64,000 nt of DNA from the NCBI RefSeq assembly GCF_022846255.1, contig NZ_AP025682.1; one strand, 5' to 3'. Positions 22,874-40,703 of this stretch are shown piece by piece. The DNA is from Escherichia coli. GTDB lineage: Bacteria > Pseudomonadota > Gammaproteobacteria > Enterobacterales > Enterobacteriaceae. The notes beneath the pieces were generated by a model. That model did not search any database. It had not been told where the DNA came from and saw only the letters and a program-made list of their open reading frames with translations. The first letter of the stretch is position 1. Each line of letters opens with the position of its first letter. The position numbers and the translations under genes were made by a program.

Positions 22874-24946
<2,073 letters not shown>

Positions 24947-26520: not shown

Positions 26521-28694
<2,174 letters not shown>

Positions 28695-28792
28695 TACGTA
28701 TCCTTATACCTGAAATCTTCGCAAGTATGCCTGGCCGCGAGATTATGGCACACTTGTCTGGTTAACTCTCGTCTCATACAGGTAACACAAAC

Positions 28793-29929
28793 GTGAAAAT
28801 CCTTGTTGATGAAAATATGCCTTATGCCCGCGACTTATTTAGCCGTTTGGGTGAGGTGACCGCGGTTCCCGGGCGTCCAATTCCCGTCGCTCAACTGGCA
28901 GACGCGGATGCGCTTATGGTGCGTTCGGTCACGAAAGTGAATGAATCTTTGCTGGCAGGAAAACCCATTAAATTTGTTGGCACTGCCACCGCGGGGACCG
29001 ACCATGTCGATGAAGCATGGTTAAAGCAGGCGGGAATTGGTTTTTCCGCTGCACCTGGCTGTAATGCGATTGCGGTAGTGGAATATGTTTTCTCCTCCCT
29101 GCTGATGCTTGCCGAACGCGATGGATTTTCACTGCACGAGCGTACCGTGGGGATCGTTGGCGTTGGTAACGTTGGTCGTCGTTTACAGGCGCGACTGGAA
29201 GCTTTAGGGATCAAAACCTTACTTTGCGATCCGCCCCGCGCCGACCGTGGGGATGAGGGGGATTTCCGCTCGCTGGATGAATTAGTCCAGCATGCGGATA
29301 TTCTGACTTTCCATACGCCACTCTTTAAAGATGGTCCGTACAAAACGCTGCATCTGGCGGATGAAAAACTGATCCGTAGCCTGAAACCAGGAGCGATCCT
29401 GATTAACGCCTGCCGTGGCGCAGTCGTCGATAATACTGCCCTATTGACCTGTCTGAACGAAGGCAAGAAGTTAAGCGTAGTGCTGGATGTCTGGGAAGGC
29501 GAACCGGAACTCAACGTGGAATTGCTGAAAAAAGTGGATATCGGCACGCCGCATATCGCAGGCTATACCCTGGAAGGTAAAGCACGCGGTACTACGCAAG
29601 TGTTTGAAGCCTATAGCAAGTTTATTGGGCATGAACAACACGTTGCGCTGGATACGTTGCTGCCCGCGCCAGAGTTTGGCCGCATTACGCTGCATGGCCC
29701 GCTCGATCAACCGACGCTGAAAAGGCTGGTGCATTTGGTGTATGATGTGCGCCGCGATGACGCGCCACTGCGTAAAGTCGCCGGGATACCGGGTGAGTTC
29801 GATAAGCTGCGCAAAAACTATCTTGAGCGCCGTGAATGGTCATCTCTGTATGTGATTTGTGATGACGCCAGTGCGGCATCATTGCTGTGTAAACTGGGTT
29901 TTAACGCCGTTCATCATCCGGCACGTTAA
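28793..29929 (+). CDS. pdxB: Erythronate-4-phosphate dehydrogenase PdxB
   Basis: 378 aa from GTG 28793 ([16 protein letters not shown]...); D-2-hydroxyacid dehydrogenase NAD site [12 protein letters not shown]. Confidence 0.9.
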
Positions 29930-29994
29930 TCTCTTCTTCATGCTCTCTGCTGTAACATTGGCAGGGAGCTTTGCTATTTCTGGAGTAAACCACC

Positions 29995-31008
29995 ATGTCT
30001 GAAGGCTGGAACATTGCCGTCCTGGGCGCAACTGGCGCTGTGGGCGAAGCCCTGCTTGAAACGCTGGCTGAACGTCAGTTCCCGGTTGGGGAAATTTATG
30101 CACTGGCACGTAACGAAAGCGCAGGAGAACAACTGCGCTTTGGTGGTAAGACAATCACCGTGCAGGATGCCGCTGAATTCGACTGGACGCAGGCGCAGCT
30201 GGCGTTTTTTGTCGCAGGCAAAGAAGCTACCGCTACCTGGGTTGAAGAAGCGACCAACTCAGGTTGTCTGGTGATCGACAGCAGCGGATTGTTTGCTCTC
30301 GAACCCGACGTACCGCTGGTGGTGCCGGAAGTAAACCCGTTTATACTGACCGATTACCGCAACCGGAATGTCATCGCCGTACCAGACAGTCTGACCAGCC
30401 AGCTGCTGGCGGCACTGAAACCGCTAATTGATCAGGGCGGTTTATCACGTATCAGCGTTACCAGCCTGATTTCAGCCTCCGCCCAGGGCAAAAAAGCGGT
30501 CGATGCGTTAGCGGGGCAGAGTGCTAAATTACTCAATGGCATTCCGATTGACGAAGAAGATTTCTTCGGGCGTCAGCTGGCGTTCAACATGCTGCCGTTA
30601 CTGCCGGATAGCGAAGGTAGCGTGCGTGAAGAACGTCGTATCGTTGACGAAGTACGCAAAATCCTGCAGGACGAAGGGCTGATGATTTCGGCAAGCGTCG
30701 TCCAGGCACCGGTATTCTACGGTCATGCCCAGATGGTCAACTTTGAAGCACTGCGTCCGCTGGCGGCAGAAGAAGCGCGTGATGCGTTTGCTCAGGGCGA
30801 AGATATTGTGCTCTCTGAAGAGAACGAATTCCCGACTCAGGTAGGAGATGCTTCTGGTAGTCCGCATCTTTCTGTTGGCTGCGTACGTAATGACTACGGT
30901 ATGCCGGAGCAAGTCCAGTTCTGGTCGGTGGCCGATAACGTTCGCTTTGGCGGCGCGCTGATGGCAGTAAAAATCGCCGAGAAACTGGTGCAGGAGTATC
31001 TGTACTAA
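29995..31008 (+). CDS. usg: USG-1 protein (aspartate-semialdehyde dehydrogenase paralogue)
   Basis: 337 aa with N-terminal NAD(P)-binding VLGATGAVG. Confidence 0.88.
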
Positions 31009-31820
31009 TGTCCGACCAGCAACAACCGCCAGTTTATAAAATTGCGCTGGGCATTGAGTACGACGGCAGTAGGTATTACGGCTGGCAACGGCAGAATGAA
31101 GTCCGCAGTGTGCAGGAGAAGCTGGAAAAGGCGCTCTCCCAGGTGGCGAACGAACCCATCACCGTCTTCTGCGCCGGGCGTACTGACGCAGGGGTACACG
31201 GTACCGGGCAGGTGGTGCATTTCGAAACGACCGCGCAGCGCAAAGACGCTGCGTGGACGTTAGGCGTAAATGCGAATTTACCTGGTGACATCGCCGTGCG
31301 TTGGGTTAAAGCTGTACCTGATGATTTTCATGCCCGATTTAGCGCCACGGCTCGCCGTTATCGCTACATCATCTACAATCATCGGCTGCGCCCGGCGGTA
31401 CTGAGTAAAGGAGTAACCCATTTTTACGAGCCGCTGGACGCTGAACGGATGCATCGGGCTGCGCAATGCTTGCTGGGCGAGAATGATTTCACCTCGTTCC
31501 GTGCGGTGCAGTGCCAGTCCCGGACCCCGTGGCGCAACGTTATGCATATTAATGTCACGCGTCACGGTCCTTATGTGGTGGTAGATATCAAAGCGAATGC
31601 CTTTGTACATCATATGGTCAGGAATATTGTCGGCAGCCTGATGGAAGTCGGTGCCCACAACCAGCCGGAGAGCTGGATAGCAGAGTTGCTGGCGGCAAAG
31701 GACAGAACGCTGGCGGCAGCAACGGCAAAAGCGGAAGGGCTATATCTGGTCGCGGTGGATTACCCTGACCGATATGATCTTCCAAAACCGCCAATGGGCC
31801 CGCTATTTCTGGCGGACTAA
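31008..31820 (+). CDS. truA: tRNA pseudouridine(38-40) synthase TruA
   Basis: 270-aa ORF; start overlaps the usg stop (TAATG). Confidence 0.93.
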
Positions 31821-31843
31821 CGAGAATAATGCTCGGAACATTT

Positions 31844-31872
31844 CAGGCTGTAGCCAACGTAGTTACAGCCTG
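31844..31872 (+). other. Hairpin between truA and dedA
   Basis: CAGGCTGTA / TACAGCCTG, 9-bp stem with 11-nt loop; no U-tract. Confidence 0.4.
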
Positions 31873-31902
31873 ATAGATGACGAGTACAAGGCATAGGCAA
31901 AT

Positions 31903-32562
31903 ATGGACCTGATTTATTTCCTCATCGATTTTATCCTGCACATTGACGTGCATCTGGCAGAGCTGGTCGCGGAGTACGGCGTCTGGGTTTATGCCATTTT
32001 GTTCTTAATTTTGTTCTGTGAAACCGGTCTGGTGGTAACGCCGTTTTTACCGGGTGATTCATTGCTGTTTGTTGCCGGAGCGTTGGCATCACTGGAGACC
32101 AACGATCTCAACGTCCATATGATGGTGGTGCTGATGCTGATCGCCGCGATTGTGGGTGACGCGGTCAATTACACTATCGGGCGGTTGTTCGGTGAAAAGT
32201 TATTCAGTAATCCCAATTCGAAAATTTTCCGTCGCAGTTATCTCGACAAAACCCATCAGTTTTATGAGAAACATGGCGGCAAAACGATTATTCTCGCCCG
32301 TTTTGTGCCGATCGTCAGAACGTTCGCCCCGTTTGTTGCGGGAATGGGCCACATGTCGTACCGTCATTTCGCCGCTTATAACGTGATTGGCGCACTGTTG
32401 TGGGTACTGCTTTTTACCTACGCAGGCTATTTCTTCGGCACGCTCCCCTTCATTCAGAGCAACCTTAAACTGATGATTGTTGGCATTATTTTTGTTTCAA
32501 TATTGCCAGGTGTTTTCGAATTTATTCGCCACAAACGCGCAGCGGCACGCGCCGCAAAATAA
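31903..32562 (+). CDS. dedA: DedA-family inner membrane protein
   Basis: 219-aa polytopic membrane protein. Confidence 0.9.
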
Positions 32563-32717
32563 AAAGTAACTCTGCGGTTCGACCACTTTTTTATCCAAAG
32601 TTTCGGGCTGTTATGTTTTAATGTGCAACATTCATGGTCTGTTGGGGGCAAAAATGGCATTATGCGTCCCCAAAGATAAAACTGGCATCGAACCAGGTTC
32701 AGACAGAAAGGTCCCTA

Positions 32718-33632
32718 ATGAGCTGGATTGAACGAATTAAAAGCAACATTACTCCCACCCGCAAGGCGAGCATTCCTGAAGGGGTGTGGACTAAGTGTGA
32801 TAGCTGCGGTCAGGTTTTATACCGCGCTGAGCTGGAACGTAATCTTGAGGTCTGTCCGAAGTGTGACCATCACATGCGTATGACAGCGCGTAATCGCCTG
32901 CATAGCCTGTTAGATGAAGGAAGCCTTGTGGAGCTGGGTAGCGAGCTTGAGCCGAAAGATGTGCTGAAGTTTCGTGACTCCAAGAAGTATAAAGACCGTC
33001 TGGCATCTGCGCAGAAAGAAACCGGCGAAAAAGATGCGCTGGTGGTGATGAAAGGCACTCTGTATGGAATGCCGGTTGTCGCTGCGGCATTCGAGTTCGC
33101 CTTTATGGGCGGTTCCATGGGGTCTGTTGTGGGTGCGCGTTTCGTGCGTGCCGTTGAGCAGGCGCTGGAAGATAACTGCCCACTGATCTGCTTCTCCGCC
33201 TCTGGTGGCGCACGTATGCAGGAAGCACTGATGTCGCTGATGCAGATGGCGAAAACCTCTGCGGCACTGGCAAAAATGCAGGAGCGCGGCTTGCCGTACA
33301 TCTCCGTGCTGACCGACCCGACCATGGGCGGTGTTTCTGCAAGTTTCGCCATGCTGGGCGATCTCAACATCGCTGAACCGAAAGCGTTAATTGGCTTTGC
33401 CGGTCCGCGTGTTATCGAACAGACCGTTCGCGAAAAACTGCCGCCAGGATTCCAGCGCAGTGAATTCCTGATCGAGAAAGGCGCGATCGACATGATCGTC
33501 CGTCGTCCGGAAATGCGCCTGAAACTGGCGAGCATTCTGGCGAAGTTGATGAATCTGCCAGCGCCGAATCCTGAAGCGCCGCGTGAAGGCATAGTGGTGC
33601 CACCGGTACCGGATCAGGAACCTGAGGCCTGA
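32718..33632 (+). CDS. accD: Acetyl-CoA carboxylase carboxyltransferase beta subunit
   Basis: ORF-track frame 32634..33632; start trimmed to ATG 32718 ([11 protein letters not shown]...); 304 aa with zinc-finger CDSCGQVLY...CPKCDHH. Confidence 0.95.
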
Positions 33633-33640
33633 TAACTGAT

Positions 33641-33670
33641 AAGGGCAGGGCCACTGGCTCTGCCCTTTTG
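33641..33670 (+). terminator. Probable attenuating terminator between accD and folC
   Basis: AAGGGCAG / CTGCCCTT stem followed by TTTTG. Confidence 0.55.
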
Positions 33671-33701
33671 CTATTCTCACCGTAACGAATCAGCGGATAC
33701 C

Positions 33702-34970
33702 ATGATTATCAAACGCACTCCTCAAGCCGCGTCGCCTCTGGCTTCGTGGCTTTCTTATCTGGAAAACCTGCACAGTAAAACTATCGATCTCGGCCTTGAG
33801 CGCGTGAGCCAGGTCGCGGCGCGTCTTGGCGTTCTGAAACCAGCGCCATTTGTGTTTACCGTTGCGGGTACTAATGGCAAAGGCACCACCTGCCGTACGC
33901 TGGAGTCGATTCTGATGGCGGCAGGGTACAAAGTGGGCGTCTACAGTTCGCCGCATCTGGTGCGTTATACCGAGCGCGTACGTGTGCAGGGTCAGGAATT
34001 GCCGGAATCGGCCCACACCGCTTCTTTTGCGGAGATTGAATCGGCACGCGGTGATATTTCCCTGACCTATTTCGAGTACGGTACGCTCTCGGCGTTGTGG
34101 CTGTTCAAGCAGGCACAACTTGACGTAGTGATTCTGGAAGTAGGGCTGGGCGGTCGTCTGGACGCAACCAATATTGTCGATGCCGATGTCGCGGTAGTAA
34201 CCAGTATTGCGCTGGATCATACCGACTGGCTGGGGCCAGATCGTGAAAGTATTGGTCGCGAGAAAGCAGGTATCTTTCGCAGCGAAAAACCGGCAATTGT
34301 CGGTGAGCCGGAGATGCCTTCTACCATTGCTGATGTGGCGCAGGAAAAAGGTGCACTGCTACAACGTCGGGGCGTTGAGTGGAACTATTCCGTCACCGAT
34401 CATGACTGGACGTTTAGCGATGCTCACGGCACGCTGGAAAATCTGCCGTTGCCGCTTGTCCCGCAACCGAATGCCGCAACGGCGCTGGCGGCACTGCGTG
34501 CCAGCGGGCTGGAGGTCAGTGAAAATGCCATTCGCGACGGGATTGCCAGCGCAATTTTGCCGGGACGTTTCCAGATTGTGAGCGAGTCGCCACGCGTTAT
34601 TTTTGATGTCGCGCATAATCCACATGCGGCGGAATATCTCACCGGGCGTATGAAAGCGCTACCGAAAAACGGGCGCGTGCTGGCGGTTATCGGTATGCTA
34701 CATGATAAAGATATTGCCGGAACTCTGGCCTGGTTGAAAAGCGTGGTTGATGACTGGTATTGTGCGCCACTGGAAGGGCCGCGCGGTGCCACGGCAGAAC
34801 AACTGCTTGAGCATTTGGGTAACGGCAAATCATTTGATAGCGTGGCGCAGGCATGGGATGCCGCAATGGCGGACGCTAAAGCGGAAGATACCGTGCTGGT
34901 GTGTGGTTCGTTCCACACGGTCGCACATGTCATGGAAGTGATTGACGCGAGGAGAAGCGGTGGCAAGTAA
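33702..34970 (+). CDS. folC: Bifunctional folylpolyglutamate synthase / dihydrofolate synthase
   Basis: 422 aa with ATP P-loop VAGTNGKGTT. Confidence 0.95.
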   Translation: MIIKRTPQAASPLASWLSYLENLHSKTIDLGLERVSQVAARLGVLKPAPFVFTVAGTNGKGTTCRTLESILMAAGYKVGVYSSPHLVRYTERVRVQGQELPESAHTASFAEIESARGDISLTYFEYGTLSALWLFKQAQLDVVILEVGLGGRLDATNIVDADVAVVTSIALDHTDWLGPDRESIGREKAGIFRSEKPAIVGEPEMPSTIADVAQEKGALLQRRGVEWNYSVTDHDWTFSDAHGTLENLPLPLVPQPNAATALAALRASGLEVSENAIRDGIASAILPGRFQIVSESPRVIFDVAHNPHAAEYLTGRMKALPKNGRVLAVIGMLHDKDIAGTLAWLKSVVDDWYCAPLEGPRGATAEQLLEHLGNGKSFDSVAQAWDAAMADAKAEDTVLVCGSFHTVAHVMEVIDARRSGGK

Positions 34971-35616
34971 GTTTCAGAATCGGTTAGTGGGCACGATCGT
35001 GCTGGTGGCGCTGGGGGTGATTGTACTTCCAGGGCTGCTGGACGGGCAGAAAAAACATTATCAGGATGAGTTCGCGGCTATCCCGCTGGTGCCGAAAGCG
35101 GGCGATCGCGATGAGCCTGATATGATGCCAGCCGCCACCCAGGCGTTGCCGACGCAGCCGCCGGAAGGCGCAGCGGAAGAGGTGCGGGCAGGTGATGCCG
35201 CAGCACCGTCGCTCGATCCGGCCACTATTGCAGCCAATAACACCGAGTTTGAACCGGAACCTGCACCGGTCGTCCCACCGAAGCCGGTGGAGCCGCTTAA
35301 GCCAAAGGTTGAAGCACCACCTGCGCCGAAGCCAGAACCGAAGCCGGTCGTGGAAGAAAAAGCAGCGCCAACGGGTAAAGCCTATGTTGTACAACTGGGG
35401 GCGCTGAAAAATGCCGATAAAGTGAATGAGATTGTCGGTAAGCTGCGCGGTGCCGGTTATCGGGTTTATACGTCGCCATCCACGCCAGTGCAGGGTAAAA
35501 TTACCCGTATTCTGGTTGGGCCAGATGCCTCGAAAGATAAGCTGAAAGGTTCGCTGGGTGAGCTCAAGCAACTTTCTGGCTTAAGTGGTGTGGTAATGGG
35601 CTATACACCGAATTAA
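34960..35616 (+). CDS. dedD: Cell division protein DedD (SPOR domain)
   Basis: ORF-track frame from TTG 34942; start trimmed to GTG 34960, overlapping the folC 3' end; N-terminal transmembrane helix, Pro/Lys/Glu-rich linker, C-terminal SPOR-like region. Confidence 0.85.
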   Translation: MASKFQNRLVGTIVLVALGVIVLPGLLDGQKKHYQDEFAAIPLVPKAGDRDEPDMMPAATQALPTQPPEGAAEEVRAGDAAAPSLDPATIAANNTEFEPEPAPVVPPKPVEPLKPKVEAPPAPKPEPKPVVEEKAAPTGKAYVVQLGALKNADKVNEIVGKLRGAGYRVYTSPSTPVQGKITRILVGPDASKDKLKGSLGELKQLSGLSGVVMGYTPN

Positions 35617-35625
35617 TACGGTCTT

Positions 35626-35781
35626 GCCTGATGCGACGCTGGCGCATCTTATCAGGCCTGGGCTGGAGTAGCCCCGTAGGTCGGATAAGGCGTTTACGCC
35701 GCATCCGACAGTCGTTGCCTGATGCGACACTGGCGTGTCTTATCAGGCCTACGCTGGAGCAGCCCCGCGCCGCATCCGACA
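35626..35781. repeat. BIME cluster (at least four REP units in alternating orientation)
   Basis: Repeated GCCTGATGCGACG...CTTATCAGGCCT and GTAGGTCGGATAAGGCGTTTACGCCGCATCCGACA units. Confidence 0.75.
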
Positions 35782-35873
35782 CGCATTGCACGATGCCGCA
35801 AAGGCATAAAAAGTCGATGGCGTTGAATATTTTTTCAGCGCCATTTTTATTGATGCGCGGGAAGGAAATCCCT

Positions 35874-35889
35874 ACGCAAACGTTTTCTT
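35874..35889 (+). promoter_or_regulatory. PurR operator (PUR box) of the cvpA-purF operon
   Basis: ACGCAAACGTTTTCTT matches the PUR box consensus ACGCAAACGTTTGCGT; a TAGAAT -10-like hexamer lies 8 nt downstream. Confidence 0.7.
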
Positions 35890-35945
35890 TTTCTGTTAGA
35901 ATGCGCCCCGAACAGGATGACAGGGCGTAAAATCGTGGGACACAT

Positions 35946-36434
35946 ATGGTCTGGATTGATTACGCCATAATCGCGGTGATTGCTTTTTCCTCTCTGGTTA
36001 GCCTGATCCGCGGCTTTGTTCGTGAAGCGTTATCGCTGGTGACATGGGGTTGTGCTTTCTTTGTTGCCAGTCATTACTACACTTACCTGTCAGTCTGGTT
36101 TACGGGCTTTGAAGACGAACTGGTTCGAAATGGGATTGCCATCGCGGTACTGTTTATCGCTACCCTGATCGTTGGTGCTATCGTGAACTTCGTGATAGGC
36201 CAGTTGGTGGAGAAAACGGGGTTGTCAGGCACCGATCGGGTGTTGGGCGTCTGTTTCGGTGCGTTGCGCGGTGTGTTGATTGTTGCTGCCATTCTCTTCT
36301 TTCTCGACTCCTTTACCGGGGTGTCGAAAAGCGAAGACTGGAGCAAATCACAGCTGATCCCGCAGTTCAGTTTTATCATCAGATGGTTTTTTGATTATCT
36401 GCAAAGCTCGTCAAGTTTCTTGCCCAGAGCGTAA
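35946..36434 (+). CDS. cvpA: Colicin V production membrane protein CvpA
   Basis: 162-aa hydrophobic ORF MVWIDYAIIAVIAFSSLVSLIRG... Confidence 0.9.
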   Translation: MVWIDYAIIAVIAFSSLVSLIRGFVREALSLVTWGCAFFVASHYYTYLSVWFTGFEDELVRNGIAIAVLFIATLIVGAIVNFVIGQLVEKTGLSGTDRVLGVCFGALRGVLIVAAILFFLDSFTGVSKSEDWSKSQLIPQFSFIIRWFFDYLQSSSSFLPRA

Positions 36435-36470
36435 GTGCTCTGAGATGTGGCTTAACGAGGAAAAAGACGT

Positions 36471-37988
36471 ATGTGCGGTATTGTCGGTATCGCCGGTGTT
36501 ATGCCGGTTAACCAGTCGATTTATGATGCCTTAACGGTGCTTCAGCATCGCGGTCAGGATGCCGCCGGCATCATCACCATAGATGCCAATAACTGCTTCC
36601 GTTTGCGTAAAGCGAACGGGCTGGTGAGCGATGTATTTGAAGCTCGCCATATGCAGCGTTTGCAGGGCAATATGGGCATTGGTCATGTGCGTTACCCTAC
36701 GGCTGGCAGCTCCAGCGCCTCTGAAGCGCAGCCGTTTTACGTTAACTCTCCGTATGGCATTACGCTTGCCCACAACGGCAATCTGACCAACGCTCACGAG
36801 TTGCGTAAAAAACTGTTTGAAGAAAAACGCCGCCACATCAACACCACTTCCGACTCGGAAATTCTGCTTAATATCTTTGCCAGCGAACTGGACAACTTCC
36901 GCCACTACCCGCTGGAAGCCGACAACATTTTCGCCGCCATCGCTGCTACAAACCGCTTAATCCGCGGCGCGTATGCCTGTGTGGCGATGATTATCGGCCA
37001 CGGTATGGTTGCTTTCCGCGATCCAAACGGGATTCGTCCGCTGGTACTGGGGAAACGTGATATTGACGAGAACCGTACAGAATATATGGTCGCTTCCGAA
37101 AGCGTTGCGCTCGATACGCTGGGCTTTGATTTCCTGCGTGACGTCGCGCCGGGCGAAGCGATTTACATCACTGAAGAAGGGCAGTTGTTTACCCGTCAAT
37201 GTGCTGACAATCCGGTCAGCAATCCGTGCCTGTTTGAGTATGTATACTTTGCCCGCCCGGACTCGTTCATCGACAAAATTTCCGTTTACAGCGCGCGCGT
37301 GAATATGGGCACCAAACTGGGCGAAAAAATTGCCCGCGAATGGGAAGATCTGGATATCGACGTGGTGATCCCTATTCCGGAAACCTCGTGCGATATCGCG
37401 CTGGAAATTGCGCGTATTCTGGGCAAACCGTACCGCCAGGGCTTCGTTAAAAACCGCTATGTTGGCCGCACCTTCATCATGCCGGGTCAGCAGCTGCGTC
37501 GTAAGTCCGTGCGCCGTAAACTGAACGCCAACCGCGCCGAGTTCCGCGATAAAAACGTCCTGCTGGTCGACGACTCTATCGTCCGTGGCACCACGTCTGA
37601 GCAGATTATCGAGATGGCACGCGAAGCCGGAGCGAAGAAAGTGTACCTCGCTTCTGCGGCACCGGAAATTCGCTTCCCGAACGTTTACGGTATCGATATG
37701 CCGAGCGCCACGGAACTGATCGCTCACGGTCGCGAAGTAGATGAAATTCGCCAGATCATCGGTGCTGACGGGTTGATTTTCCAGGATCTGAACGATCTGA
37801 TCGAAGCCGTTCGCGCTGAAAACCCGGATATCCAGCAGTTTGAATGCTCGGTGTTCAACGGCGTCTACGTCACCAAAGACGTTGATCAGAGCTATCTCGA
37901 TTTTCTTGATACTTTACGTAATGACGATGCCAAAGCCGTGCAACGTCAGAACGAAGTGGAAAATCTCGAAATGCATAACGAAGGATAA
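36471..37988 (+). CDS. purF: Amidophosphoribosyltransferase
   Basis: 505 aa, MCGIVGIAG... (N-terminal nucleophile Cys) and PRPP-binding [13 protein letters not shown]. Confidence 0.95.
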
Positions 37989-37997
37989 CACCTTCGC

Positions 37998-38022
37998 TCA
38001 GGGTGCCGGTCTGGCACCCTGA
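37998..38022 (+). other. Perfect 10-bp hairpin between purF and ubiX
   Basis: TCAGGGTGCC - GGTCT - GGCACCCTGA; no U-tract follows. Confidence 0.45.
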
Positions 38023-38082
38023 CTTGCAACTCCCGTCGAAATCCTGCAAAGTCTGCCTGCAAGTCTGACAGGGCAACTATTT

Positions 38083-38652
38083 ATGAAACGACTCATTGTA
38101 GGCATCAGCGGTGCCAGCGGCGCGATTTATGGCGTGCGCTTATTACAGGTTCTGCGCGATGTCGCAGATGTTGAAACGCATCTGGTGATGAGCCAGGCCG
38201 CGCGCCAGACCTTATCTCTTGAAACGGATTTTTCCCTGCGCGAAGTGCAGGCGTTAGCTGATGTGACGCACGATGCGCGCGATATTGCTGCCAGCATCTC
38301 TTCTGGTTCTTTCCAGACGCTGGGGATGGTGATTTTACCCTGTTCAATCAAAACCCTGTCCGGCATTGTCCATAGCTATACTGATGGCTTACTGACCCGT
38401 GCGGCAGATGTGGTGCTGAAAGAGCGTCGCCCGCTGGTGCTCTGCGTGCGTGAAACACCATTGCACTTAGGCCATCTGCGTTTAATGACCCAGGCGGCAG
38501 AAATTGGTGCGGTGATTATGCCTCCCGTTCCGGCGTTTTATCATCGCCCGCAATCCCTTGATGATGTGATAAATCAGACGGTTAATCGTGTTCTTGACCA
38601 GTTTGCGATAACCCTTCCTGAAGATCTCTTTGCCCGCTGGCAGGGCGCATAA
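38083..38652 (+). CDS. ubiX: Flavin prenyltransferase UbiX
   Basis: 189 aa, MKRLIVGISGASGAIYGVRLL... Confidence 0.9.
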   Translation: MKRLIVGISGASGAIYGVRLLQVLRDVADVETHLVMSQAARQTLSLETDFSLREVQALADVTHDARDIAASISSGSFQTLGMVILPCSIKTLSGIVHSYTDGLLTRAADVVLKERRPLVLCVRETPLHLGHLRLMTQAAEIGAVIMPPVPAFYHRPQSLDDVINQTVNRVLDQFAITLPEDLFARWQGA

Positions 38653-38833
38653 CTCCGCTGTTGCCCTGTTTCAGGGCAATTTTGCAACCGCGATCAAATC
38701 CTCGACATTTTGTTCCTTTCGATGAATCGAAACGCTGCGATTCAACCGCCATACCTGCTATCTTCAACTCTAGGACAATAATGCAACGTCTTATTAACAT
38801 ATTTAACGTTGAATGTTACTGTTGTCGTAAAGA

Positions 38834-38849
38834 TGGCATAAGACCTGCA
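38834..38849 (+). promoter_or_regulatory. Sigma54-type promoter (-24 GG / -12 GC) upstream of argT
   Basis: TGGCAT-N7-TGCA with exactly 10 nt between the GG and GC dinucleotides, about 70 bp upstream of the argT start; nitrogen (NtrC) control of argT is established. Confidence 0.5.
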
Positions 38850-38917
38850 TGAAAGAGCCTGCAAACACACAACACAATACACAACATAAAAAAGCCATTT
38901 TCACTTGAGGGTTATGT

Positions 38918-39700
38918 ATGAAGAAGTCGATTCTCGCTCTGTCTTTGTTAGTCGGTCTCTCCGCAGCGGCTTCCAGCTATGCGGCGCTACCGGAGACGGT
39001 ACGTATCGGAACCGATACCACCTATGCGCCGTTCTCATCGAAAGATGCCAAAGGTGACTTTGTTGGCTTTGATATCGATCTCGGTAACGAGATGTGCAAA
39101 CGGATGCAGGTGAAATGTACCTGGGTTGCCAGTGACTTTGACGCGCTGATCCCCTCACTAAAAGCGAAAAAAATCGACGCCATTATTTCGTCGCTCTCCA
39201 TTACCGATAAACGTCAGCAGGAGATTGCTTTCTCCGACAAGTTGTACGCCGCAGATTCTCGTTTGATTGCCGCCAAAGGTTCACCGATTCAGCCAACGCT
39301 GGATTCACTGAAAGGTAAACATGTGGGTGTGCTGCAGGGATCAACCCAGGAAGCATACGCTAACGAGACCTGGCGTAGCAAAGGCGTGGATGTGGTGGCC
39401 TATGCCAACCAGGATTTGGTTTATTCCGATCTGGCTGCAGGACGTCTGGATGCTGCGTTACAAGATGAAGTTGCTGCCAGTGAAGGATTCCTCAAGCAAC
39501 CTGCTGGTAAAGATTTCGCCTTTGCTGGCTCATCAGTGAAAGACAAAAAATACTTCGGTGACGGTACCGGTGTAGGGCTACGTAAAGATGATGCTGAACT
39601 GACGGCGGCGTTTAATAAGGCGCTTGGCGAGCTGCGTCAGGACGGTACCTACGACAAGATGGCGAAAAAGTATTTCGACTTTAATGTCTACGGTGACTGA
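38918..39700 (+). CDS. argT: Lysine/arginine/ornithine-binding periplasmic protein
   Basis: 260 aa with signal peptide; close paralogue of HisJ (shared ...[32 protein letters not shown]...). Confidence 0.9.
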
Positions 39701-39920
39701 TACGTCGCAGGGAAACTGTACCTGATGGAATGATCATCATGGTGCACGCCAGGTTTGTTGCACTATCGTGGTGCATTGAAATGCATACTTAAGCATTTTT
39801 AATGAAAAATAATACGTCTAACGGGGCGGGATATTTTGCCTTGATGGTCAATTTTATGGCACGATAAGTGTAACAAACCTGTAAATATTCCCTATAAAAA
39901 GACTGTCAGTTGAGGACATT

Positions 39921-40703
39921 ATGAAAAAACTGGTGCTATCGCTCTCTCTGGTTCTGGCCTTCTCCAGCGCAACTGCGGCGTTTGCTGCGATTCCGCAAAA
40001 CATCCGCATCGGTACCGATCCGACCTATGCGCCATTTGAATCAAAAAATTCACAAGGCGAACTGGTTGGCTTCGATATCGATCTGGCGAAGGAGTTGTGC
40101 AAACGCATCAATACGCAATGTACGTTTGTCGAAAACCCACTGGATGCGTTAATCCCGTCCTTAAAAGCGAAGAAGATTGACGCCATCATGTCATCGCTTT
40201 CCATTACGGAAAAACGTCAGCAAGAAATTGCCTTCACCGACAAACTGTACGCTGCCGATTCTCGTCTGGTGGTGGCGAAAAATTCCGACATTCAGCCGAC
40301 AGTCGAGTCGCTGAAAGGCAAACGGGTAGGCGTATTGCAGGGCACCACCCAGGAGACGTTCGGTAACGAACATTGGGCACCAAAAGGCATTGAAATCGTT
40401 TCTTATCAGGGGCAGGACAACATTTATTCTGACCTGACTGCCGGACGTATTGATGCCGCGTTCCAGGATGAGGTCGCTGCCAGCGAAGGTTTCCTCAAAC
40501 AACCCGTCGGTAAAGATTACAAATTCGGTGGTCCGTCTGTTAAAGATGAAAAACTGTTTGGCGTAGGGACCGGCATGGGCCTGCGTAAAGAAGATAACGA
40601 ACTGCGCGAGGCACTGAACAAAGCCTTTGCCGAAATGCGCGCTGACGGTACTTACGAGAAATTAGCGAAAAAGTACTTCGATTTTGATGTTTATGGTGGT
40701 TAA
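39921..40703 (+). CDS. hisJ: Histidine-binding periplasmic protein
   Basis: 260 aa with signal peptide; type II periplasmic binding fold. Confidence 0.9.

Follow-up and report, generated by a model that had tools for sequence, protein, structure and literature searches.

Origin and probable roles of three intergenic hairpins between truA and ubiX in Escherichia coli

Do similar hairpins in the short spacers of a row of co-directional housekeeping genes form one class of RNA element, or do they differ in origin? The question arises at a 64,000-nucleotide (nt) stretch of Escherichia coli DNA (contig NZ_AP025682.1; the window), whose + strand carries the genes pdxB-usg-truA-dedA-accD-folC-dedD-cvpA-purF-ubiX in that order. 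Hairpins lie between truA and dedA (H1), between accD and folC (H2) and between purF and ubiX (H3). A reading made from the letters of the window alone (the sequence-only reading) had taken all three to be attenuators, processing sites or stability elements that set the different expression levels of neighboring genes in one long co-directional array. From related genomes, RNA folding and published RNA 3′ ends, they are probably three unrelated, ordinary elements: an ERIC (enterobacterial repetitive intergenic consensus) fossil at H1, a terminator or leaky attenuator of accD at H2, and a 3′-end hairpin of purF at H3.

Positions 28003–40000 of the window are ~97% identical to E. coli K-12, and positions 31000–38700 are 98.8% identical to strain E2348/69. 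For comparison, 80 Enterobacteriaceae loci with 10-kb flanks, one genome per species, were collected in a FolC-anchored scan, and K-12 was added. Orthologous genes were placed by tblastn, and the truA-dedA, accD-folC and purF-ubiX spacers were taken from each locus; individual loci are designated by L and a number where they have to be told apart.

Three hairpins with different histories

The three stems are present, within 1 nt of the positions first given for them, and the genes around them had been assigned correctly. Perfect stems of 10 bp or more, with loops of 3–12 nt, were counted in the whole window and in 60 dinucleotide shuffles of it: 11 were observed, against a mean of 0.52 and a maximum of 2. 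Folding energies were −19.4 kcal/mol for H1 (z = −6.9), −22.1 kcal/mol for H2 (z = −4.2) and −21.2 kcal/mol for H3 (z = −4.1), and for each hairpin none of 200 dinucleotide shuffles folded as well. The small size of the stems is the one point that fits chance inverted repeats without biological meaning; with 11 perfect 10-bp hairpins where about 0.5 are expected, z values of −4 to −7, and the positions of H2 and H3 kept in ~80 species, the likelihood of that explanation is next to negligible.

A single class of intercistronic RNA elements, tuning their neighbors inside one long transcript array, would fit the strong folding of all three, their placement in short spacers between co-directional genes, a fourth such hairpin in the pdxB-usg spacer and the mapped 3′ end at H3. 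Against it, the three evolve differently: the sequence of H2 is invariant, H3 keeps its structure only, and H1 is a lineage-specific insertion, which sister taxa of identical gene order lack or have in reduced form. The array is also several operons rather than one. The segments pdxB-usg-truA-dedA, accD and folC-dedD are taken here to be separate transcription units, as older work by Arps and Winkler in 1987, Nonet and colleagues in 1987 and Li and Cronan in 1992 is said to describe them. Published work names cvpA-purF-ubiX as one operon, and all three of its genes respond alike in in-vitro run-off profiling. Finally, the curated Term-seq tables of Adams et al. (2021; PMC7815308), a data type that had been proposed as a check on the hairpins, list a 3′ end at H3 and have no entry at H1 or H2. 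A common class is distinctly unlikely on these grounds. The proposed role as attenuators, processing sites or stability elements gained ground at H2 (terminator anatomy, family-wide conservation) and at H3 (a published RNA 3′ end) and found no backing at H1; that the hairpins set the expression levels of their neighbors found none at any of the three.

Rfam, searched at E values up to 1, gave no family match at H1, H2 or H3; its only matches to naRNA4, a family of the repetitive extragenic palindromic (REP) type, lie at 35590–35749. An identity of H1, H2 or H3 with REP sequences or bacterial interspersed mosaic elements was rejected, no REP-type consensus being matched at any of them in Rfam.

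The truA-dedA element and its probable ERIC relatives

The truA-dedA spacer measures 82 nt only in E. coli, three further Escherichia lineages and E. whittamii; it is 26 nt long in E. albertii, and most of the remaining genera, among them most Citrobacter, Enterobacter and Kosakonia, have 23–28 nt. H1 therefore sits in an insertion of ~56 nt, at a site that is filled in some lineages and empty in others. Its arms, TCAGGCTGTA (31843–31852) and TACAGCCTGA (31864–31873), pair over 10 bp without a mismatch around an 11-nt loop; as RNA the hairpin has 12 pairs and a 7-nt loop, and a further 6 pairs form an outer stem. The element is an imperfect palindrome with terminal inverted repeats, and the folding energy of the complete spacer is −28.6 kcal/mol (z = −4.7). 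The stem is followed by TAGATGAC, with no U-rich tract, and H1 was not reported by the terminator scan. In blastn searches H1 was found once in 5425 of 5426 complete E. coli genomes. A search for distant copies in the 5,426 genomes returned the truA-dedA site only, a 67-nt query in 28 Gb being too insensitive for diverged ERIC copies.

The ERIC, also called intergenic repeat unit (IRU), is reportedly a MITE (miniature inverted-repeat transposable element) of 127 bp, and its description is attributed to Sharples and Lloyd in 1990 and to Hulton and colleagues in 1991. H1 was compared with the E. coli ERIC consensus of Wilson and Sharp (2006) as printed by Delihas (2007; PMC2759123). Its right arm and terminus (CCAACGTAGTTACAGCCTGA.AGATGACGAGTA) match consensus positions 88–126; by blastn, positions 91–125 align with window positions 31852–31886 at 80% identity (E = 2.3e-4), and a consensus with the center deleted aligns at 74% identity over 50 nt (E = 3.4e-6). 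A profile built from 12 full-length ERIC copies of the comparative loci, run over the 64 kb with nhmmer, gave H1 as its only significant match (E = 2.7e-4), and the score of its gapped alignment to ERIC was reached by 0 of 500 shuffles.

Several points tell against this assignment. The match is short and its support moderate, the E values of 1e-4 to 1e-6 referring to a 64-kb search space; and the left arm is not independent evidence, since the element is a palindrome. ERICs are co-transcribed MITEs flanked by TA, a target duplication (PMC3184786), and the flanks of H1 (...AATA|ATGCTCG on the left, CGAGTA|CAAGG on the right) show TA at each end only if the terminal bases of the element are counted.

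At ~57 nt H1 is also much shorter than the ~127-bp ERIC, and a short copy with the same boundaries occurs elsewhere. Several Citrobacter species and one Enterobacter-labeled genome have full 127-nt ERICs between accD and folC, just upstream of H2 (Table 1). Locus L020 carries at that site a short ERIC whose deletion boundaries (GCAG|CCAACG) are those of H1, and sister species have the full 127-nt element there; short ERIC forms therefore do arise from full ones. In truA-dedA spacers of 48–49 nt (L026, L012, L017, L018; Salmonella arizonae and some Citrobacter) there is a mini-hairpin with arms like the ERIC termini (ATACCCG...GAATATGACGGGTA), whose alignment score to ERIC was reached by 1 of 500 shuffles for L026, 24 of 500 for L012 and 6 of 500 for L017. 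Either the same ERIC insertion or a parallel one, cut down further by deletion, may have left this mini-hairpin. The empty spacers of 23–28 nt were tried as ERIC remnants as well and rejected as not significant (13 of 500 and 82 of 500 shuffles). Across Escherichia, Salmonella and Citrobacter, the truA-dedA spacer may keep the stages of a single old ERIC insertion that shrank by nested deletions (from 127 nt through 57 and ~25 nt to 0 nt), a possibility rated above that of a sequence-specific signal at H2, considered below. If true, the series would show how transposon fossils turn into look-alike "regulatory" hairpins.

Other repeats occupy the same spacers elsewhere. In L054, L062, L065 and L069 (Raoultella terrigena, Raoultella sp. 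and two Enterobacter-labeled genomes), the truA-dedA and accD-folC spacers hold a different long palindromic repeat of 100–150 nt, with the sequence CGTATACGC..CATCCTTCAGGC ... GAAGGAT..ACGTAT.

For H1 itself, an ERIC/IRU element would have entered the truA-dedA spacer, gone to fixation in the lineage of E. coli and lost ~70 nt from its center. The remnant would be co-transcribed and folded, with a small or neutral effect on the expression of truA and dedA. Neutrality, or a small effect, is the probable state, and sister lineages that have only the mini-hairpin, or nothing, argue against an important role. "Neutral" may be too strong a word, which weighs the other way: among seven Escherichia sequences, 97% of the H1 pair cells are standard pairs and two pairs are changed on both sides, with a covariation score reached by 3 of 500 shuffles, and in this small sample the two compensatory changes hint that the fold is maintained.

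A functional RNA of the ERIC type is the alternative. Folding of H1, or its unfolding by ribosomes at the end of truA, could expose or hide a ribonuclease (RNase) E site and so alter the decay of truA relative to dedA mRNA, as reported for the ERICs of Yersinia. An ERIC that is co-transcribed can bring in an RNase E site and set off decay of the mRNA upstream (PMC3184786, summarizing De Gregorio 2005). H1 is fixed in E. coli, its pairing was kept through the two double changes, and it stretches a 24-nt, probably translationally coupled, junction to 82 nt. Set against this, E. albertii, Citrobacter and Salmonella arizonae have lost or shortened the element and kept their gene order, the Term-seq tables hold no 3′ end for it, and the central part of the ERIC is deleted. 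In the K-12 aceF-lpd spacer, where a full ERIC stands with its core sequence unaltered, the tables of Adams et al. (2021; PMC7815308) place a Term-seq 3′ end (127845, + strand) a few nt past the central hairpin. Intact ERICs can therefore yield stable RNA ends, and H1 has lost that core. A functional role is unlikely, and the regulatory role first proposed for H1 gives way to the reading of a decayed ERIC-related insertion, confined to Escherichia and probably of small or neutral effect.

The 3′ hairpins of accD and purF

H2 has the anatomy of an intrinsic terminator. It lies 9 nt past the accD stop codon and 32 nt before folC, and its stem consists of eight perfect pairs, one G:T and three more (12 pairs, 8 of them G-C) around the loop ACT, followed by the tail TTTTGCTATTCT. 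With at least 5 T in the 8-nt tail window, the rule of the terminator scan, it was the best match of that scan in a 14-kb region. A hairpin followed by a run of 4–8 T stands between accD and folC in all 80 loci. The stem, GGGCAG.GCC / GGC.CTGCCC, is nearly invariant across them: 57 of 82 loci have the exact pattern and the others come close to it, and variation is limited to the loop and one central position (G:G, G:U, A:G, A:U or a bulge). Covariation is uninformative here (RNAalifold, with the register off by one), because the pairs essentially do not vary.

H2 would be a factor-independent terminator, or a leaky attenuator, at the end of the accD transcript: the RNA hairpin and the UUUU behind it would release RNA polymerase, and read-through would contribute to transcription of folC-dedD. 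Three observations pull the other way. The run of U is short (UUUUGCUAUU); the constancy of the stem sequence goes far beyond what termination seems to require; and the curated Term-seq tables list no 3′ end between K-12 positions 2432900 and 2433099, which is weak evidence because the minus-strand entries of these tables begin near 23,000 reads. The same tables do place two 3′ ends further on, both inside folC, at K-12 2432888 on the minus strand (window ~33756), 54 nt past the start of folC, and at K-12 2431708, 24 nt before dedD (Adams et al., 2021; PMC7815308). Some transcription therefore crosses the accD-folC junction or starts near it, and the end at ~33756, 87 nt downstream of the H2 U-run, suggests a second stop or a processing site early in folC.

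The constancy of the stem also raises a role beyond termination, in which H2 would be a binding site for a protein such as Hfq, or the 3′ module of a small RNA derived from accD. Its sequence, and not just its fold, is frozen across the family, and the purF hairpin of the same genomes turns over freely. Yet the base of the pdxB-usg hairpin is fairly constant too, so short spacers in this region may simply evolve slowly, and neither Rfam nor experiment hints at such a role. A signal common to the 3′ ends of acc genes was considered and rejected: the accA terminator and H2 have no motif in common. A sequence-specific function is very unlikely on balance; if it were true, such an RNA or DNA signal could couple expression of accD (fatty-acid synthesis) to that of folC (folate). 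The degree of sequence constancy is greater than the readings considered here explain.

H3 is built otherwise. Its arms, TCAGGGTGCC (37998–38007) and GGCACCCTGA (38013–38022), enclose a 5-nt loop and are followed directly by CTTGCAAC; this is not a U-rich tract, and H3 was not reported by the terminator scan. A hairpin stands just past the purF stop codon in all 71 distinct enterobacterial sequences. Because purF hairpins vary in offset and by paired indels, and MAFFT with RNAalifold gave no consensus structure, statistics per sequence were used in place of column covariation. Uninterrupted helices have a median length of 10 bp, compared with 5 (maximum 9) in control segments from the purF coding region, and 94% of the 3′ windows reach −18 kcal/mol or lower, a level found in 11% of the controls. 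The sequence itself is diverse, with 44 different arm 8-mers. Klebsiella, Raoultella, Franconibacter, Cedecea and Kluyvera have a canonical T-run behind the hairpin, as do genomes with ubiX placed elsewhere; Escherichia, Citrobacter, Enterobacter and Kosakonia lack it. In L064 the 210-nt purF-ubiX spacer has tandem copies of a long CCCTCTCCC / GGGAGAGGG palindrome in place of the simple hairpin, and the whole spacer folds at −116 kcal/mol.

A 3′ end has been mapped at H3. Supplementary file 1 of Adams et al. (2021; PMC7815308) gives K-12 2428685 (minus strand) as a primary 3′ end of purF in two growth conditions, and the K-12 purF RNA ends ...GGCACCCUGACU, 4 nt past the H3 stem. A stable stem without a U-tract and with a 3′ end immediately downstream has been described for Rho-dependent transcripts protected from exonucleases (Dar and Sorek, 2018; PMC6061677). 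Two features of such protective stems were looked for at H3, and both were found: the stable stem without a U-tract and a precise steady-state 3′ end just downstream. The best reading of H3 is that of a hairpin that defines the 3′ end of cvpA-purF mRNA and stabilizes it within a leaky operon, leaky because cvpA-purF-ubiX is treated as one operon whose genes respond alike in run-off profiling. Transcripts ending at H3 or beyond would accumulate with a 3′ end 4 nt past the stem, formed by inefficient hairpin-driven termination or, more likely, by 3′-to-5′ exonucleases halting at the stem; the missing U-tract is what favors the exonuclease stop.

H3 might also be a weak intrinsic terminator, its end a product of RNA polymerase release trimmed by a few nt, with neither Rho nor endonucleolytic processing involved. 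The canonical T-run on the equivalent hairpin of several genera would make termination the ancestral or a common role, and the 3′ end is close to the stem. But of the first 8 nt behind the stem only 2 are U, the end lies 4 nt past it and not 7–9, the anatomy fits the U-less protective stems of Dar and Sorek, and ubiX is reported to be co-operonic. Weak termination is the less probable account, though one to be taken seriously, and an exonuclease-blocking 3′ hairpin is the account kept below.

Directly 3′ of H3 lies a conserved block, TTGCAA, 17 nt and CAAAGT, recovered from an alignment of 65 distinct ubiX upstream regions. It travels with ubiX where purF is kilobases away (L013, L051, L065, L072 and L079). 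The stem abuts or overlaps it in Escherichia, Citrobacter, Enterobacter and Kosakonia, with overlap in Enterobacter, and because the −35-like TTGCAA starts 2 nt past the stem, there is no room for a U-tract at H3. The block is a candidate ubiX promoter or other cis-element of ubiX, although the −10-like CAAAGT, with 3 of 6 consensus positions, failed the promoter scan, which counts against the promoter. The gene would then be served by read-through and by a promoter of its own. A sigma-54 promoter made of the H3 right arm and TTGCA was rejected on three grounds: the spacing is TGGCAC-N6-TTGCA and not TGGCAC-N5-TTGCA; TGGCAC is absent in Citrobacter and Enterobacter; and published peaks of RpoN in genomic SELEX (systematic evolution of ligands by exponential enrichment) lie at argT and cvpA/dedD, with none at purF-ubiX.

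Further features and comparison with known elements

The features are collected in Table 1.

Table 1. Hairpins, ERIC copies and associated features; positions are those of the window unless a comparative locus (L number) is named
Feature	Position	Strand	Details
pdxB-usg spacer hairpin	29942–29969	+	11 pairs, then TTTGCTATTT; terminator scan; absent from the sequence-only reading
H1 whole element, truA-dedA spacer	31830–31886	+	~57-nt ERIC-like palindromic insertion; outer stem 31830–31835 / 31881–31886
H1 core stem-loop, truA-dedA spacer	31843–31873	+	10 perfect bp; 12–14 pairs as RNA
H2, accD 3′ hairpin and T-rich tail	33641–33677 (hairpin 33641–33667)	+	12 pairs including one G:U
H3, purF 3′ hairpin	37998–38022	+	10 perfect bp, loop GGTCT, no U-tract; sequence, folding, comparison
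Counterpart of K-12 Term-seq 3′ end 2428685(−), "primary, purF"	38024	+	mapped by own count from sequence
Conserved ubiX upstream block	38024–38052	+	TTGCAA (38024–38029), 17 nt, CAAAGT (38047–38052); 65 distinct ubiX upstream regions aligned
Full-length ERICs, accD-folC spacer	~9800–9940 of L007, L008, L009, L013, L019, L021, L023, L055		
ERIC with internal insertion, accD-folC spacer	9750–9936 of L014		insertion of ~76 nt
Short deletion-form ERIC, accD-folC spacer	~9870–9930 of L020 (Citrobacter sp. FP75)		
ERIC in dedA-accD spacer	8853–8979 of L025		

The pdxB-usg hairpin is kept in all loci, with a variable upper stem, and its tail TTTGCTATT is identical to that of H2. Positions 32408–32607, from the last part of dedA into the dedA-accD spacer, have 85.5% identity to K-12 and 98% to E. 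albertii, between flanks that are 99–100% K-12-like. They form a small mosaic (recombinant) segment, with a corresponding difference in the DedA C-terminus. The mechanically called open reading frame of accD runs from 32634 to 33632 (332 amino acids), and the K-12 annotation starts at the ATG at 32718 (304 amino acids). In the dedD-cvpA spacer, naRNA4 matches lie at 35590–35658 and 35679–35749, the second on the + strand with 80.3 bits, above the gathering score.

Look-alike hairpins between co-directional housekeeping genes can thus differ in origin, and comparing related genomes separates them. A decaying ERIC copy in the truA-dedA spacer can pass for a regulatory stem, and at the purF-ubiX junction a compact 3′-end hairpin is set against a conserved block upstream of ubiX. 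Each of H1, H2 and H3 belongs to a known kind of element, in the bacterium that has been studied best, the 3′ end at H3 was already published, and the current understanding of E. coli gene regulation is unchanged by them. Only two loose ends are left: the sequence of H2, which is frozen, and a possible history of nested ERIC deletions between truA and dedA.

The likeness to known systems differs from hairpin to hairpin. H2 resembles intrinsic terminators in its G+C-rich 12-pair stem, 3-nt loop, AA upstream, UUUU directly downstream and position 9 nt after a stop codon, and departs from them in the short U-run and in having no 3′ end listed in the tables of Adams et al. (2021). The counterparts of H3 in Klebsiella, Raoultella, Franconibacter and others are canonical intrinsic terminators, from which H3 in Escherichia, Citrobacter and Enterobacter differs by having no U-tract. 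Hairpins that stabilize a 3′ or intercistronic end are an older concept, known from the REP sequence in malE-malF; H3 is not a REP sequence, and the Rfam matches of that type lie elsewhere. With the protective 3′ stem-loops of Dar and Sorek (2018), H3 has in common a stable U-less stem and a precise 3′ end a few nt downstream, followed by a C-rich stretch (CUUGCAACUCCCGCCG); unlike theirs, its next gene is only 60 nt downstream and reported to be co-operonic, and Rho dependence and exonuclease protection are putative for H3. H1 differs from ERIC/IRU elements in being only ~57 nt long, the central ~70 nt with the core hairpin being gone, in its 74–80% identity and in being single-copy in E. coli at this divergence. 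Like them, it is intergenic, predicted to be co-transcribed and an imperfect palindrome; its right arm and terminus match positions 88–126 (CCAACG...CTGAAAGATGACGAGTA), it is present or absent among related genomes, and a short ERIC of Citrobacter, in L020, has the same internal deletion.

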